A DNA stretch of 64,000 bases from Octopus sinensis (lineage: Eukaryota). Position numbers and translations under genes: made by a program. How positions within the stretch are numbered: position 1 is the first letter of the stretch; every line of letters begins with the position of its first letter. The notes beneath the pieces are model-generated. The model saw nothing but the letters and a program-made list of their open reading frames with translations, ran no database searches and was not told the DNA's origin. The stretch spans positions 69,130,001 to 69,194,000 of the forward strand of contig NC_043007.1 in the NCBI RefSeq assembly GCF_006345805.1. Reading direction: 5' to 3'. Positions 9,441 through 44,978 of this stretch are shown piece by piece.

Positions 9441-9514
9441 TCAACAACAAAAATAACAACGACAAAAAAAAACAAAAAACAGCAGCTGCAGCGAATCACA
9501 AAATCAATTCTTAC

Positions 9515-9779
9515 CAATTTCAAGATCTCTGACACAATAATCGGGTGATGACTCGAAATAGACGAGATCAGACCTGGTCGGTCGCTTGTGGTCTTTGTTG
9601 GCCACAATAAGTCCAGTACCTTCTTGGTTCATCATTACTTGTACAGCACCATTGTATTTGTTTTTGAGGTAGTCGCCAACTCTACGGAATTCCATCATCG
9701 CAGACCAGCATGTACGTATGGAACAGGAACCCGAAACTCCATGGCACTTGCATTCCAGCTTCATGAAGCGTTTTACTGC
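9515..9779 (-). CDS. Wnt2: Wnt2 internal coding exon (equivalent to vertebrate WNT2 exon 4), containing the palmitoleoylated Ser motif KCHGVSGSC
   Basis: ttctggag|GCA GTA AAA CGC..., giving [89 protein letters not shown]|gtaag. 265 bp and in frame with the 12756 exon. KYNGA.QV.MNQ.GTG and DLVYFE.SPDYC are Wnt2-like. The 5' boundary is ambiguous (see findings). Confidence 0.93.
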
Positions 9780-10186
9780 CTCCAGAAGAGAAGAATAAAC
9801 ATGCTATCAGTGAAGGGAAAACGTTGCGTGGGGAGAGGAAATAATGTCTTACATGATAATACAGGCATGGTCACGTATTGTCTATAAAATTCACACACAC
9901 CATACATACATACATACATACATACATACATACATACATACATACATACATACATACATACAACGAACGAAACAAACGGAAAATGCACACATACAATGTC
10001 GCTAAATCTTTATTAGTTATAGTCCAAAGGATCATAACAATTTCCTACCAATCCTTTGAACTGATGAGGATCAAGGGACATTCTATGTGTATTTTCCGTT
10101 TGTTCCGTTTTTTTGTGTTTCTCTATAATTTTTGAACATGTTATTTTATATAATGCCACGCACGTTCTCATTTTATAACTATTCTG

Positions 10187-11938: not shown

Positions 11939-12755
11939 ATATATATTATACATACATACATACATACATACATACAAACAGACAGACAGACAGACATATT
12001 ATATTCACATACACATATATATTCTAATGTGGAAAGAAATAGTGCAGTAAGTATATTGTATTATACACATTTGTGTAAACGAATGCGCTGCTCAAAGTGC
12101 ACTACGTCGCATTGCTTTCGAATTATGTCACCTTGTTAGGTCGGCGGGCAGGTGGACATTTCCACTGAACGGAACGCCGGTTCTTCCTATGGTTAGCTGT
12201 ATACAGCTCAGTGGACTGAACCTACCTGAATTGAAGTGTTTTACTTTATGCACAACGCAAAGCCGGACTGGGAATAGAAACACCCTAACCACTAAGCCAC
12301 GCGCCTTCACACAAAGACACACAGATATATGCAGAATGAGATGAGGGGGAGAGTCAGTCAGGTAGACAGAGATAAAAAGACAAAATAGGTACATCAAATA
12401 CCATACAATACAAATTACTGATATATTGAAATTATCTTTGCCTCTATAGGATGCGTCACAATTGCCAAATAGCAATAAAGATCAACTGCATATGAGATAG
12501 GGAGGTATCGCCAAGAAAGAAAATCAGGAATTTATGTTGTATGGTATTTGATACTCCTGCATTTGACCATATTATTCAAATACATGCCACTGACCACTCC
12601 TTTTGTTAATATATAAATATATGCCTCTATGTATTCAGACATGTTTGTACATCTATATACATAGTAGATGGTCTTGTAAAGTGTTTGCCCTGAATAGGTT
12701 TTGGTGAAGTATAAAGTTAAACACAAAATAAATGTAGAAAGAGATCATATCTTAC

Positions 12756-13033
12756 CCTCCTCCCAGCTCTGTTGTTATGTAGATTCATTAGCGCTCTGGC
12801 ATCACGAACTTTTTTTTCTCGCGCATCAATAAACATTCGTGAAAAGTCGCTCCCGTAGCGCACGTTGTCACTGCAGCCTCCCCATTCAAAATTGCCTTTT
12901 TTATCACGTCCTTTGCCCATTTTTGTTGGATCACAAGAACAGTCCCGCAACGTCCCTTTACTACAGGCTCGTGTGATTGCATGCACTACAGCAGAAGAAG
13001 ATATGGCGTATACGAATGCAGCCTCTCGGCTTC
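12756..13033 (-). CDS. Wnt2: Wnt2 internal coding exon (equivalent to vertebrate WNT2 exon 3)
   Basis: The minus strand reads tttatttcag|GA AGC CGA GAG..., giving [92 protein letters not shown]|gtaaga. 278 bp, phase 1 to phase 0. Wnt motifs are present (CSCD, WGGCSDN, MNLHNN.AGR), and [15 protein letters not shown] is Wnt2-type. Confidence 0.95.
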
Positions 13034-13607
13034 CTGAAATAAATAGATACCAATGAAAAAAATCTGAAAGACAAATGTTGAATTATAACAAAAAAAATTA
13101 ATAAACCAAGTGAGATTTAATGAATGGTAGAATTAAGGGTAAATATGCGGTTTTGTGGGTTTAAAAAGTGAACGTAAAATGCAGGATCTACCGGCAGTGA
13201 AATCTGATAATTTCATGTAAACAATCTATGGAGAATTGTTAGAAACAACACAACCACTTCCTGTCGGTTTTTTTAAAACTGTATTATTTCATTGTTTACA
13301 TGTAACAGAGTTGGCTATCATTTGTCGACATCGACATGCAGGCGAACGAATTGCATTTTCAGTGGTATTCATTGCTACACTTAGTACATTGAACGATGTG
13401 ACTCAGTCGCCATTTCTGAACTTCAGACATCACTAGAAGACACTATACTAGAGGGTACTTGTACTCTCGGCAAATGGGGGGATTTTATTAACAAAACCCA
13501 GGGATTTCACCAGTTCTATATATTTGATTATTGGATGTCAATGTCGTCACTTCTAGTCAATTTACTTCCATTTTCATTAATCCATTAACCAGTGTATTAA
13601 CTGAATT

Positions 13608-23020: not shown

Positions 23021-24910
23021 TTGTGTGTCTGTGTTTGTCCCCCTAGCATTGCTTGACAACCGATGCTGGTGTGTTTATGTCCCCGTTACTTAGCGGTTCG
23101 GCAAAAGAGACCGATAAAATAAGTACTGGGCTTACAAAAGAATAAGTCCTGGGGTCGATTTGCTCGATTAAAGGCGGTGCTTCAGCAAGGCCGCAGTCAA
23201 ATGACTGAAACAAGTAAAAGAGTAAAAAAAGAGAGAGTAAAGAGTATATAAAAGGAAATGAAAAGAAAGAACCAAACTGGAGGAAGAGAATACGAATGAA
23301 GCTGGAAAAGACACGGAAAGAACTGAGACAATTGAATAGGATAATGAGAGGAGAGCTCAAGAATAAGGTAGTAATCAGAAAAGTAAATGGACAGTACAAG
23401 TTAGAAGAAAGGGGAAAACAAGCAGTACATGAAGAATTGACAAAAAAAGTCAAATCATTAAAGGCCAAATTGAAAAGATTTGATACTAAATGCAAAGGTT
23501 TCGAACAGAATACACTCTTCAAATCAAATAGAAGGTATCTTTTTGAGGAAATAGAGGGAGCCCAATATCAGGAACTGATTCCAGATGCAGAAGAAAGTAA
23601 AAAAAAAATGGAGAGGCCGGTGAGACAAAGAAAGCGCGGAGTTGCTAACAAAGGTGGAAAGAAACTTGCAATTGTACCAAGACAAAAGGACGTCAGAATT
23701 GATCTATATACATTGAGACAGAAGTTAAAAAGAACATTGCAAATTGGAAAGAACAAGACCCGGATGGAGTTAAAAGCTATTGGTTGAAGAACTTTACACA
23801 GTTGCATGAAAGGATCGCTGTGCAATTGGATGACTGCCTGCAGCAAGGTCACGTACTTGCATGGATGACAAGTGGACGAACGCTGCTATGCCTCAAGGAT
23901 CCCTTGAAAGAGCTTCAAATTTTCGACCTATAACCTGTTTACCACTTATGTGGAAGTTAATGAACGGTGTCTTGGCGGAAGAGTTATACTACTATCTGGA
24001 AAGTAACAATCAACTTGCAGAAAAGAAAGGGTGCAGGAAACAAAGTAGAGCCACAGAAGATCACTTATAAGTTGATAAAATAATAATTAGAAATTGTAGA
24101 CGCAGATTGACGGGACAGAATGTAGCATGGCTATATTACAAAAAAGCATTTGACATGGTACCACACAGTTGGATAAGTAAAATAATGAGCATGTTTGGAA
24201 GAGCAAAAGAATGCAGGGAGAAAATGCTTAATGAAAGTATGAAACATTGGAATACTGAACTGATAGGAGAAAAGCAAAAACTCGGAAAGTGAACATCAGA
24301 ATATTCCAAGGTGATTGCTTGTCTCCATTACTCTTCGTATTGAACATGGCACCGCTCACTTTGATACTATGATACTTCGAAAAGTTGAAATCGCTTACGA
24401 TTTGGGAAATGGAAATTGTCAGATAAATCATTTTTTCATAGATGATATAATGTTTTAGGCGAAAAATGAGAAACAGCTTGAAAGGTTTGTTCATACTATC
24501 CGCATTTTCTCAGATGATGCAGGTATGGAATTTGGGATAGAAAAGTGCACTATTTTGAAAATGAAACGAGGAAGATTTGAAAGAAGCCGGGGAATTGAAA
24601 TGCCAAACAATGGGAACGGTTGAGTAAGGACAGTAGTATAAGTACTTGGAAATACTGGAAGCAGAAAATGAAAAATGAAGAAATGAAACAAATTACCAGT
24701 AGGGACTGCAGAAGGTGAGTAAGAAAATTATTGCAGTCAAAGCTGAATTTCAAAATTCTTATTGGAGCAATAAATTTAAGAGCAGTACCCTTAATCAGAT
24801 ATGGACTTTGAATAATAGACTGGACCAAAAACGATATAAAGAAACTTGACAGAAAAACTAGAAAGTTGTTGACGATGTATGGAGCCCACCATCCGAAAGT
24901 TGATATCAAA
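22200..24910 (+). mobile_element. Decayed R4/Dong-like non-LTR retrotransposon (RT region), interrupted by a SINE
   Basis: Fragmented RT motifs [67 protein letters not shown] and MYGAHHPK, with many stops and frameshifts. Boundaries are approximate. Confidence 0.85.
22783..23245 (+). mobile_element. tRNA-derived SINE, family C (with internal TA/TG microsatellite)
   Basis: GGCGCAGGAATGGCTGTGTGGTAAG...GGTTCAGTCCCACTGCGTGGCACCTTGGG...GTGGATTTGGTAGACGGAAACTGAAAGAAGCC-(TA)n(TG)n-...GTCAAATGACTGAAACAAGTAAAAGAG. Inserted within the LINE. Confidence 0.9.
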
Positions 24911-41121: not shown

Positions 41122-41920
41122 CGGCGAGCTGGCAGAATCATTAGCACGCCGGGCGAAATACTTAGCGGTATTTCGTCTGCCGTTACGTTCTGAGTTCAAA
41201 TTCCGCCGACGTCGACTTTGCCTTTCATCCTTTCGGGGTCGATAAATTAAGTTCCAGTTACGCACTGGGGTTGATGTAATCGACTTAATCCATTTGTCTG
41301 TCCTTGTTTGTCCTCTCTGTGTTTAGCCCCTTGTGGGTAGTAAAGAAATAGAAATAGGTATTTCGTCTGCCGTTACGTTCTGAGTTCAAATTCCGCCGAC
41401 GTCGACTTTGCCTTTCATCCTTTCGGGGTCGATAAATTAAGTTCCAGTTACGCACTGGGGTTGATGTAATCGACTTAATCCATTTGTCTGTCCTTGTTTG
41501 TCCTCTCTGTTTTTAGCCCCTTGTGGGTAGTAAAGAAATAGAAATAGGTATTTCGTCTGCCGTTACGTTCTGAGTTCAAATTCCGCCGACGTCGACTTTG
41601 CCTTTCATCCTTTCGGGGTCGATAAATTAAGTTCCAGTTACGCACTGGGGTTGATGTAATCGACTTAATCCATTTGTCTGTCCTTGTTTGTCCTCTCTGT
41701 GTTTAGCCCCTTGTGGGTAGTAAAGAAATAGAAATAGGTATTTCGTCTGCCGTTACGTTCTGAGTTCAAATTCCGTCGAGGTCGACTTTGCCTTTCATCC
41801 TTTCGGGATCGATAAATTAAGTACCAGCTACGCACTGAGGTCGATGCAATCGACTTAATTCGTTTGTCTGTCCGTGTTTGTCCCTTCTGTGTTTAGCCCC
41901 TTATGTGTAGTAAAGAAATA
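41122..41920 (+). repeat. Family-A SINE head followed by four tandem 190-bp body units
   Basis: ggtatttcgtctgccgttacg starts at 41167, 41357, 41547 and 41737. Confidence 0.95.
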
Positions 41921-43317
41921 GATCTCGAAATGGTAAAAACAAAGTCGAACTTAGCGCCATTTGAATTAAGAATGAAAAAGCCAACAAAATGATTTGTCCG
42001 ATGTGATAATGATTCTGCCAGCTTTCCACTTCGTAATAATAATACCTTTTGACAGAGGCACAGAGTCAGCAATTTTGAGGAGAAGGGATTAGTTGATCCC
42101 ATCGATCCTAATACTTGACTGGTACTTTAGTATATAAACCATGAAAAGATGAAAGGCGAAGTTGATGTCGGCGGGATTTGAACTCAAGCGAAAATAGCCG
42201 GAGGAAATACATTATAATGGCCTCTGAAATAGGCACAAGGATAAAAGCTTTGACGGGAAATGATTATATAAATACACATGCATAAATGTGTGCATGTGTA
42301 TGTGTGTGTGTGTGTGTGTATGTATGTTTGTGTGTATGTATGTATGTGTGTGTGTGTGTGTACGACGGGCGTCTTTCAGTTTCCATCTACCAAATCCACT
42401 CACAGGGTTTTGGCTGGCCTGTGGCTACAGTAGAAGAAAGTTACCCAAGGTGCTACATAAGAGCTGTAAAACATACAAATAATGTTTCCAGGCTAATCCT
42501 CGCAGAATAAGCCTCTGGTCAAAGACGTTGCAGCAGTGACCATCCTGTCCTTTTCCTGGGTACAGAGCATGAGAAATGCAGGACTCTACATTATCAATTG
42601 TGATTTGTTTTGCTAGAAGATCTTTTGATGAAGATTTGGCTGCTCTTTCTAGCAACTTGAATAGACGTGTTGAAGATACTTTGTTCATTATTCTCTGTTA
42701 CATTTTATTGTGTTTTTATAGCCAATGTACTGTCTTGATTGAGTAAAACTTTGATCGAATACTCTCAACCATAACAATCTGTGTTTTATTACAGTATTCA
42801 ATACCCTTAACTATATCATCCAAAGTAGTTTTCGTTAACAAAGACGATAGCTGTGAGTTGAGGAAAATTTGGCTACTGTCTCTAACATAACGCCTGCTAA
42901 TAGGTTCCTCTCTATGTTTTTTGGATTGTTTCTGTGTTCAGATTTCAAAGCTTAGTCTATTAAATAGCCCCAAGTACTTGAAGGTGCATCATAAGATGCA
43001 AGTAAATTTCTGGAATGGATTTTTCAAGGTAGGGCCTCGCAATATTTTGGTGGGGCGTGGATGACTCAAGAATGAGGTGTAACTAAGTAACAAATGAATA
43101 GTACTTACAGAAAAGCTATATTAAATCTCTGAGCGAGATATAAACAGTATCAGTACGGAATCGTAGCATATAATTACCAACCAAGTGTGGCGTCCTATAG
43201 TGAACAATGCTACTGACGTTTATAGCCCCAAGAAGACATCTCCTTCAGCTGGCTAACGACACACATTCTGTGTCCGATTAGTATATATGCGAGGAGAGGT
43301 CTCTAGCCTTACGTGAT

Positions 43318-43364
43318 ACACACGGACTAGACTTTCTGGGTGGTTATCCGTCCTCAGCGTGTGT
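43318..43364 (-). ncRNA. Type I hammerhead ribozyme motif
   Basis: ACACACG CTGAGGA C GGAT-aacc-ACCC A GAAAG-tcta-GTC CGTGTGT. Perfect 7-bp stem I and GUC site, with single mismatches in stems II and III. Confidence 0.75.
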
Positions 43365-43569
43365 TAATCACATGCTAACTGTCCTGTATAGGACGCCACA
43401 CTTGGTTGGCAATTATATGTTATGATTCCGTACTGCTACTATTTATATCTCGCTCAGAGATTTAACATAGCTTATTCCCCCTTTTTCGAGATCAGCGATA
43501 GTTTGTCGCTGGAAAAAGCATATAGAATTTTGCGAGTGGAATGAGTTTTCATCACTAGCATGGGATTAA

Positions 43570-43612
43570 CACAGACTGAGGACGGGTAAACACCCAGAAA
43601 CTCTAGTCTGTG
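43570..43612 (+). ncRNA. Type I hammerhead ribozyme motif (second copy)
   Basis: CTGAGGA C GGGT-aaac-ACCC A GAAAC-tcta-GTC. Core and stems II and III are intact. Stem I is degraded and disrupted by a SINE insertion. Confidence 0.7.
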
Positions 43613-43613
43613 A

Positions 43614-43845
43614 AAGCGGTGAGCTGGCAGAAACGTTAGCACGCCGGGCGAAATGAGTAGCCGTATTTCGTCTGCCGCTACGTTCTGAGTTTAAATTCCG
43701 CCGAGGTCAACTTTGCCTTTCATCCTTTCGGGGTCGATAAATTAAGTACCAGTTACGCACTGGGGTCGATGTAATCGACTTAATCTGTTTGTCTGTCCTT
43801 GTTTGTTCCCTTTGTGTTTAGCCCCTTGTGGGCAATAAAGAAATA
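43614..43845 (+). mobile_element. Family-A SINE inserted into the hammerhead element
   Basis: 18-bp TSD agaaactctagtc(t/c)gtga at 43596-43613 and 43846-43863. Confidence 0.92.
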
Positions 43846-44978
43846 AGAAACTCTAGTCCGTGAGTATCACGTAAGGCTAAAGATGGGAGCGATGGCCTCC
43901 CCTCGCAAATACTAATTGGACACAGGATGTGTGTCGTTAGCCAGTTGGAGTAGATGCTTCCTGGGGCTATAAACCTCTGTAGCACTGTCCTGTATAGGCC
44001 ACCACACTTGGTTGGCAATTATATGTTACTTACAGAAAAATTTTAAATAAAAATACTTTGAAATATACGGTATATGATATAGTTGATGCAATAAAAGAGT
44101 TTCCTTAGAATCGGTTGTGGTTAAGCGTATGTATGCATTCGGAACATCTTTGCGAGGCTCCAAACAGCCATAATTGCGCGTTGGAAGTTTAATACAAAAC
44201 GTGTTTATCCTCAATTTCGCTACATTTGCTCTGTAGCTTGTAACTGGTAATACTCCTCAGGATAGTAGTTAATTCATAACTATATAGAAACCTGACTGGA
44301 TTATGAAAACCTACGTGAAGCTATAAATATAACAGTAGCAGTCGCACATCTACTCATACATGTAATTCCTGGTACACTCACACACACTCACACAGAGAAA
44401 CACACACACAGAAACACACACACACATATATACATATATACTGCGTTATATATATACTAGACTACCCGTAACCCGTTGGGTCACTGACGGTTCAGTTTAT
44501 ATAACATTGAAGCTGATTTCAACATTGCATTAAAATGATAGTTAATTTTATGATTCAGTTAAACGTTTCAATTCGTTCATGTCATCATAGGTCTGGTTTA
44601 GAAGTTCAGGTTTTAAGATTTTATTAATTAATTACAGCATTTAATAGAAATAGAACTTTCAGGATAAACTTGAACTCCAATAAAAGCATTTATTTATGGC
44701 ATATGTGCACACTTGTGCAAAAATGCAAAAGGAATTGTTATATAACGTAATCATTTAATTAATAGAGACAATTTTCATTTCTGGGTTATGTTACTTTTGG
44801 AGTATTTTCCCATTATGCATCGTTTTGGCTACTTATGAAGGTACCTATAAAAACCACGTATCTCGAGAACATCAATACATTCGAGAATGAATAAGAAACA
44901 TGGAGGGTTGTCTTGGAGTGTGCTAGAAATAACTGCCAAATCTCCATCAAGTCACTTTTTCCTCTGAAAACATTTACA

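Follow-up and report, generated by a model that had tools for sequence, protein, structure and literature searches.

Non-LTR retrozymes of metazoans have been described from mussel, coral and axolotl as repeats of 150-450 bp, 350-390 in mussel (Cervera and de la Pena 2020, PMC7229834), and retrozymes have been placed among the non-autonomous derivatives of Penelope-like elements (PLEs; Li, Clavereau, Pollet 2026, bioRxiv 10.64898/2026.07.22.740005). The role of PLEs as retrozyme helpers has so far been based on co-occurrence and pLTR similarity. How PLEs produce tandem and inverted copies with a one-sided tail is itself described as undefined in the sections of Craig et al. 2021 (PMC8557442) on which we draw. 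Schistosoma carries opposite-strand hammerhead pairs 100-700 bp apart (PMC8557442; Cervera 2014, PMC4209133). The Tx1 clade of LINEs includes families with preferred targets, among them Tx1L inserting into Tx1D, Tx1-Mar into Mariner-N4 and Keno into U2, together with Kibi/Koshi, and preference is called there when a target makes up more than 20% of flanks (Kojima 2015, PMC4494074).

Here we describe an element in a 64,000-nucleotide stretch of the Octopus sinensis genome (the window), its genome-wide family, and LINEs found beside hammerheads elsewhere in the genome. The family is a new non-LTR retrozyme family of a kind already known; the less expected result is a preference of LINEs for hammerhead retrozymes. 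If true, this preference adds ribozyme retroelements as a new target class for target-specific retrotransposons, and LINE-upon-retrozyme insertion becomes a parasite-on-parasite link, one not found in the literature searched. That literature, with subscription papers and Repbase outside its scope, also held no report of octopus hammerheads or retrozymes, of Neptune with octopus, or of ribozymes or retrozymes as targets of Tx1 or other LINEs. Ribozymes go unmentioned in the Octopus vulgaris repeat annotation that we consulted.

Layout and setting of the window insert

An earlier note on this DNA had described a 13-bp direct repeat around the insert, and exact copies lie at both ends (Table 1). 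Since 5 nt of the repeat are common to the element ends, the unambiguous TSD is 8 bp. The inverted and direct copies of one sequence that the note had laid out were recovered, as were its two hammerhead-like motifs on opposite strands; what it had overlooked is an unrelated SINE inside the direct arm. Its description of the element as non-coding agrees with a longest stop-free frame of 72 codons, and no RT plus GIY-YIG ORF between pLTRs is present in the window element.

Table 1. Positions of the insert, its parts and nearby exons in the window
Feature	Position	Strand	Remarks
Whole insert	43113-44029		inverted arm, then 1.1-unit direct arm of 357-nt head-to-tail repeat
Left TSD, 13 bp	43102..43114	.	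last 2 nt shared with the element end
Inverted 5'-truncated arm	43113..43377	-	unit 179-357-96; 88% to family majority
Type I hammerhead motif, degenerate	43318..43364	-	predicted cut between 43325 and 43324
Direct arm, first part	43378..43613	+	unit 1-236; 92%
Type I hammerhead motif, degenerate, SINE-split	43569..43613	+	predicted cut after 43608
SINE TSD copy 1, 18 bp	43596..43613	.	
High-copy SINE, 232 bp, A-rich tail	43614..43845	+	later insertion
SINE TSD copy 2, 18 bp	43846..43863	.	
Direct arm, second part	43864..44029	+	unit 237-357, then 1-46
Right TSD, 13 bp	44027..44039	.	first 3 nt shared with the element end
Wnt-family exons	9510-9782; 12753-13040; C11:69195383-69195568	-	last exon 1.4 kb past window end

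Overall, the direct arm runs from unit position 1 to 357 and on to 46, and the insert apart from the SINE is a circularly permuted 357-nt unit. The outer end of the direct arm, on the 44029 side, is the short one of two kinds of 3' end found in the family; that of the inverted arm is the long, tailed kind. The arms have 5 non-majority bases in common, which points to one event from one template lineage. The left junction is crossed by a contig of public run X8 (42900-43142, 0 differences) and the right junction by a contig of run X9 (44001-44250), either of which may be the source sample of the assembly itself. We think it probable that the window element is one old insertion, split later by a SINE, and this probability covers the whole reading, in which a Neptune-clade enzyme likely made the copy from a monomer RNA, probably circular, that is predicted to arise by self-cleavage.

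The SINE splits the plus-strand hammerhead, the 3' half of which is duplicated as the 18-bp SINE TSD. This SINE, which we take to be of tRNA origin, has 35 matches within the window and a depth of about 10^6-10^7, against 7-60 in the flanks; ARAGORN found nothing. Similarity of its tail to LINE tails is weak (scores of 32, 33 and 43 against shuffled maxima of 40, 30 and 37). It occupies unit positions 219-236, and the site preferred by LINEs is at 171-195; with 35 matches in 64 kb, chance explains the position of the SINE in the unit. The same SINE sits at unit 179-189, within the LINE-preferred site, in another locus (L024:2155-2393), and four tandem copies of its 3' part (190-bp period, 96% alike) lie at 41122-41922 of the window.

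Wnt-family exons on either side place the element in what is likely a 52-kb Wnt intron, where the degenerate minus-strand ribozyme is sense to the host Wnt pre-mRNA. Taken alone, the window copy is a decayed Wnt-intron insertion of an ordinary kind. Elsewhere in the window, at 23906-24217, tblastn found a weak RT remnant.

The 357-nt family and its hammerheads

Searching the 2.7-Gb genome with positions 43113-43613 gave 2685 candidates, of which the best 40 were scored, and the unit was built from 26 non-redundant loci among the best 30. The search and consensus proposed in the earlier note thus yielded a dispersed family with a head-to-tail majority that closes at 357 nt, with 46% GC. Median identity to the majority is 90.5% (114 passes), and head-to-tail stretches reach 638 nt, or 1.8 units. 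Genome searches with patterns for the ribozyme and for the tail gave 39 exact and 697 matches, respectively, each with 0 in the control; among 30 loci inspected, the tail matches were mostly sister families. All loci analyzed here are top-ranked subsets and not a random sample. Four runs presumed to be RNA contain 159, 65, 190 and 72 family-like pieces at 80% or more; these are contigs, from which neither ends nor circles can be read, and they do not enter the evidence here.

The majorities of four families have lengths of 356-361 nt and are 44-65% alike. At least six further hammerhead repeat families of about 350 nt occur (L187:1507-2099, L191, L260, L246, L229, L256); palindromic stem III is present in all of them, some have a U3-A8 or U3-G8 core variant, and the four that were aligned have motifs in common. 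At locus L061, two partial units lie as mirror images of each other at a distance of 4.6 kb, which may reflect a local inverted duplication.

The family-majority hammerhead has an intact core, a 7-bp stem I with an extension, a 4-bp stem II with one extra base on each side, and a stem III that is a perfect 8-nt palindrome, ACUCGAGU. The ribozyme that the earlier note had repaired from the two window copies departs from this majority in loop 2 (AAAC where the majority has AACC) and in stem III, where both window copies have the same G-to-U change. Nor is the motif minimal, as had been implied: it is a type I hammerhead of canonical size, and the majority shows none of the marks of the minimal form (no stem III, a 7-8-bp stem II, a 4-5-bp stem I). 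In the window, the minus-strand motif has a stem II mismatch and two changes that break stem III and its palindrome, and the plus-strand motif has stem I changes.

The Rfam hammerhead models, suggested as a check, gave no match in the window, in six loci or in one intact copy. Our own descriptor gave 95 distinct matches in all fetched DNA, 63 of them with a perfect stem III palindrome of many kinds, against 2 matches and 0 palindromes in shuffled DNA. Both window motifs fail this descriptor, and their ribozymes are therefore likely dead. Stem covariation, the lack of which was to refute the note's reading, was found across sister families: 11 of 14 pairs had two-sided changes among 12 ribozymes picked from the descriptor matches (0/500 shuffles), in a set picked by a descriptor that demands pairing, so that the picking itself favors pairing. 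Core positions were changed in 26/660 cells compared with 1247/16902 elsewhere, across 39 loci chosen by overall similarity. By energy estimates, stem III adds nothing in a monomer (-9.6 versus -9.9 kcal/mol), and as a dimer it would form a duplex of -10.7 kcal/mol, against only -2.8 for the window variants. Palindromic stem III is thus predicted to be of the dimer type.

Insert ends, Neptune elements and template

End analysis of 126 segments from 69 loci showed that 5' ends are spread, whereas 3' ends pile up at unit positions 31-60 (36 segments) and 91-105 (39), so that there are two fixed 3' ends, separated by about 50 nt. All 18 complete inverted inserts pair one short with one long end; the other 16 of the 34 inverted inserts are interrupted or truncated, so that their two ends could not both be scored. 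With its SINE skipped, the window copy obeys the same rule (unit ends 96 and 46). (TA)n is touched by 39 of 82 such ends, compared with about 6% in the background. The target of the window copy is not (TA)n. Outside (TA)n, 6 of 10 inserts have a TSD of 11-15 bp (null 3/90), and in the other 4 a TSD is absent.

The window copy has long inverted repeats close to its two ends, as would an ordinary MITE or foldback DNA transposon with the arms as its terminal inverted repeats. Across the family, however, arm length varies between 31 and 560 nt and the junctions vary too, the two ends differ in sequence, and many copies are single-armed. Tabulating TSDs and inversion points, as had been proposed for this very contrast, gave variable lengths and long TSDs (11-15 bp), which makes a MITE the least credible origin we considered.

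Intact Neptune ORFs of 775-781 aa are present in the genome, with RT, a Cys linker and GIY-YIG at the C terminus, 98-99% alike within a family. The ends of Neptune family A (n=19) comprise 12 short ones and 6 with a tail of about 35 nt, nearly all into TA-rich repeats, and 1 running on. The 3' regions of both Neptune families contain hammerhead-like motifs with a palindromic stem III. BLAST (E up to 1) of four retrozyme majorities against two Neptune 3' regions found no similarity, so the partnership is assigned by integration signature only. Another observation concerns a young, intact Neptune family (L170-L178; 781 aa, 98-99% alike) that ends in (TA)n; a short hairpin occurs in its tail and in the retrozyme tail.

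The suggestion that the element is a parasite of a Penelope-type RT/GIY-YIG gains support from the variable arms, the 11-15-bp TSDs, the covarying stems and intact Neptune elements whose signature, two kinds of end and (TA)n targets, is the same. The copies might instead be 5'-truncated pLTR remnants of an as yet undiscovered autonomous, hammerhead-bearing PLE. PLE copies are mostly truncated and have the same inverted arm and tail, as far as PMC8557442 describes them, and our scoring covered the top candidates of each search. Yet no autonomous element with the unit as its pLTR was found at the 69 loci, which have no common 5' flank except a SINE; in many loci the unit is joined head to tail with itself; GIY-YIG is absent from the 21 nearby ORFs scanned; and long internal sequences are LINE insertions with their own TSDs. 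We consider such an origin improbable. Two loci taken up as candidate unit-flanked autonomous elements (L085, L087) were rejected, their internal parts being LINEs bounded by short TSDs.

Arms and passes of an insert resemble one another more than those of different loci. Shared derived bases amount to 17-19% within inserts and 7% between. In the older family of the window, pass differences are 0.113-0.122 within versus 0.137 between, a modest contrast, as is that in one sister family (4 loci; 3.0-3.4% versus 4.4%). In a young sister family with 14 loci they are 2.3-2.6% within and 7.6% between, and in another with 2 loci, 0 of 1394 columns differ within an insert against 1.5% between. Such near-identical passes fit repeated copying of a monomer; this was probably a circle, the simplest form. 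Gene conversion or template jumping could also homogenize arms.

A linear template used by the same element and enzyme, either an uncleaved multimer or a cleaved monomer with end-to-end template jumping, would also account for some of these data. Read-through of tandem copies, too, would be expected to give inserts of 1-3 units, and the bin with the cut site (226-240) holds 2 of the 126 segment 5' ends, a lack of pile-up that is equally compatible with a circle and with an uncleaved precursor. But a linear multimer would pass on differences between its units, and in young inserts the passes show few differences or none, while one locus differs from another; in addition, retrozymes of mussel, coral and axolotl are shown as circles in the text of PMC7229834. 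We judge a linear template unlikely. With good confidence, we instead favor the reading that the non-LTR retrozyme is copied by a Neptune-clade enzyme from a monomer RNA that would be released by self-cleavage and is probably circular.

In the mechanism we propose, copies longer than a unit would be transcribed, two ribozymes would pair through palindromic stem III and excise a monomer, and a host ligase would close it. The Neptune GIY-YIG would then nick both strands of AT-rich or (TA)n DNA, and both nicks would prime reverse transcription on the same template. The observed ends would place this priming at unit positions of about 41-49 and, some 50 nt on, about 91-98, both of which are ATATA-like words. 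Extension of each cDNA would halt at a variable point, and head-to-head joining of the pair would produce an inverted arm, a direct arm and a TSD. The strict end rule, the identity within inserts, the intact young Neptune ORFs and the young retrozyme families together make PLE copy-making and the helper role directly testable here.

LINEs beside hammerheads and known systems

LINE sequence flanked by short TSDs breaks up several units at positions 171-195. We examined three LINE sets, searched with LINE sequence only, under a strict rule that the hammerhead start at most 100 nt from the LINE 3' end. This was the case at 8/30, 6/27 and 5/19 loci, compared with 0/493 control windows; the combined 19/76 includes one query source, leaves out 4 loci without a findable end, and takes its third set from 20 loci chosen mostly for long ORFs among 150 matches. 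Counting decayed targets raises one set to 10/30 by alignment or 12/30 by eye. The combined figure lies above 20% of flanks in one target class, with insertions taken as independent. In a third young LINE group (14 loci, 13 scorable), 0/13 were at hammerheads, so the preference is lineage-specific.

LINEs at hammerheads measure 469, 570, 886, 1057 and 1121 nt, lie in different host families and have 18-24-bp TSDs; full-length young copies have TSDs of 17-18 bp. In the neighboring pass beyond the LINE, the site is empty. These insertions look independent. We rejected hitchhiking, the copying of an entire unit with its LINE, as the chief explanation, given that truncation lengths, host families and host variants differ and adjacent sites are empty; it may inflate LINE set A. 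One insertion is antisense and lies at the mirror word of the stem, which suggests recognition at the DNA level.

The LINEs encode APE, RT and zf-RVT in ORF2, and a zinc-knuckle ORF1. The closest solved protein is LINE-1 ORF2p, and the closest named homolog among 120 listed is from Argonauta. No named Tx1 reference is among those 120, and a homolog search with a broken LINE piece gave no match; Tx1 membership is putative.

Several further groups were observed. Some LINE families are very young (L274, L275, L287, L292; L279, L286), with ORF2 98.5-99.9% alike and up to 1134-1140 aa; every copy has a retrozyme family of its own as host and occupies one and the same site there, upstream of a hammerhead. 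A LINE form of 1.7 kb with an internal deletion, consisting of ORF1 and the 3' end and likely non-autonomous, occurs in two unit subfamilies (L085:972-2708, L092-L097, L106). A related LINE group (L276, L277, L278, L281, L283) forms head-to-tail arrays with 5.3-6-kb spacing, away from hammerheads.

Twin priming yields inverted 5' arms, and for this reason, together with the frequent position of the ribozyme directly after LINE 3' ends, one might ask whether an L1/Tx1-like LINE spreads the unit, by 3' transduction or twin priming, with the inversion an ordinary product of the latter. The inserts, however, have no A-rich LINE tail; their ends fall on two fixed positions of the unit, and they favor (TA)n. 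The LINEs lie inside units with 16-24-bp TSDs, and passes beyond them retain the empty site, so the LINEs arrived later. Spread by LINEs is thus very unlikely. In the reading we prefer, with Neptune-clade copying, LINE insertion forms the last step, and this step was observed: some L1/Tx1-like families land preferentially on these units, just upstream of the ribozyme core. More tentatively, and with somewhat less than even confidence, we propose a three-tier parasite chain: Neptune would spread a superfamily of hammerhead circles of about 357 nt through two priming events, each at a fixed site of a single circular template, and endonucleases evolved in L1/Tx1-like LINE lineages would home on the stem immediately upstream of the ribozymes, borrowing retrozyme transcription and possibly self-cleavage to define the 3' end of LINE RNA.

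Like the Tx1-clade LINEs of PMC4494074, as its main text presents them, those found here combine APE-RT and a zinc-knuckle ORF1 with a preferred site in another repeat; unlike them, they take a hammerhead retrozyme as target, beside the catalytic core, and do so in several families. The sections of that paper on which we draw name no ribozyme or PLE target, apart from unspecified 'satellites' in a figure legend, and target lists in its supplement may bear on this.

The main text of PMC7229834 describes metazoan retrozymes with which ours agree in the type I hammerhead, the stem III of which is short and palindromic, in GC below 50%, lack of an ORF, a unit within 150-450 bp, a TSD of more than 4 bp and PLEs in the same genome. 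The words 'inverted' and cephalopods do not occur in that main text, although the supplement may list cephalopods. Expression and circles, known from those systems, are predicted for the octopus family, which differs in its dispersed inserts of 1-2 units, its inverted arms and the strict pairing of short and long ends. Dependence on PLEs is likewise proposed in 10.64898/2026.07.22.740005, with similar unit sizes, from co-occurrence and pLTR homology in 35 species with no mollusc among the listed classes. Here the link is the integration signature instead, and no such homology to two Neptune families was found.

With Neptune-clade PLEs, as far as PMC8557442 and PMC4209133 describe them, the octopus retrozymes have in common partial tandems, an inverted 5'-truncated arm, a tail at one end, microsatellite-type targets, and a hammerhead in which stem II is preceded by an extra base and stem III is palindromic. 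They differ from these PLEs in having no ORF, in a tail of about 50 nt rather than 30-40, and in being unrelated in sequence to the two Neptune families compared.
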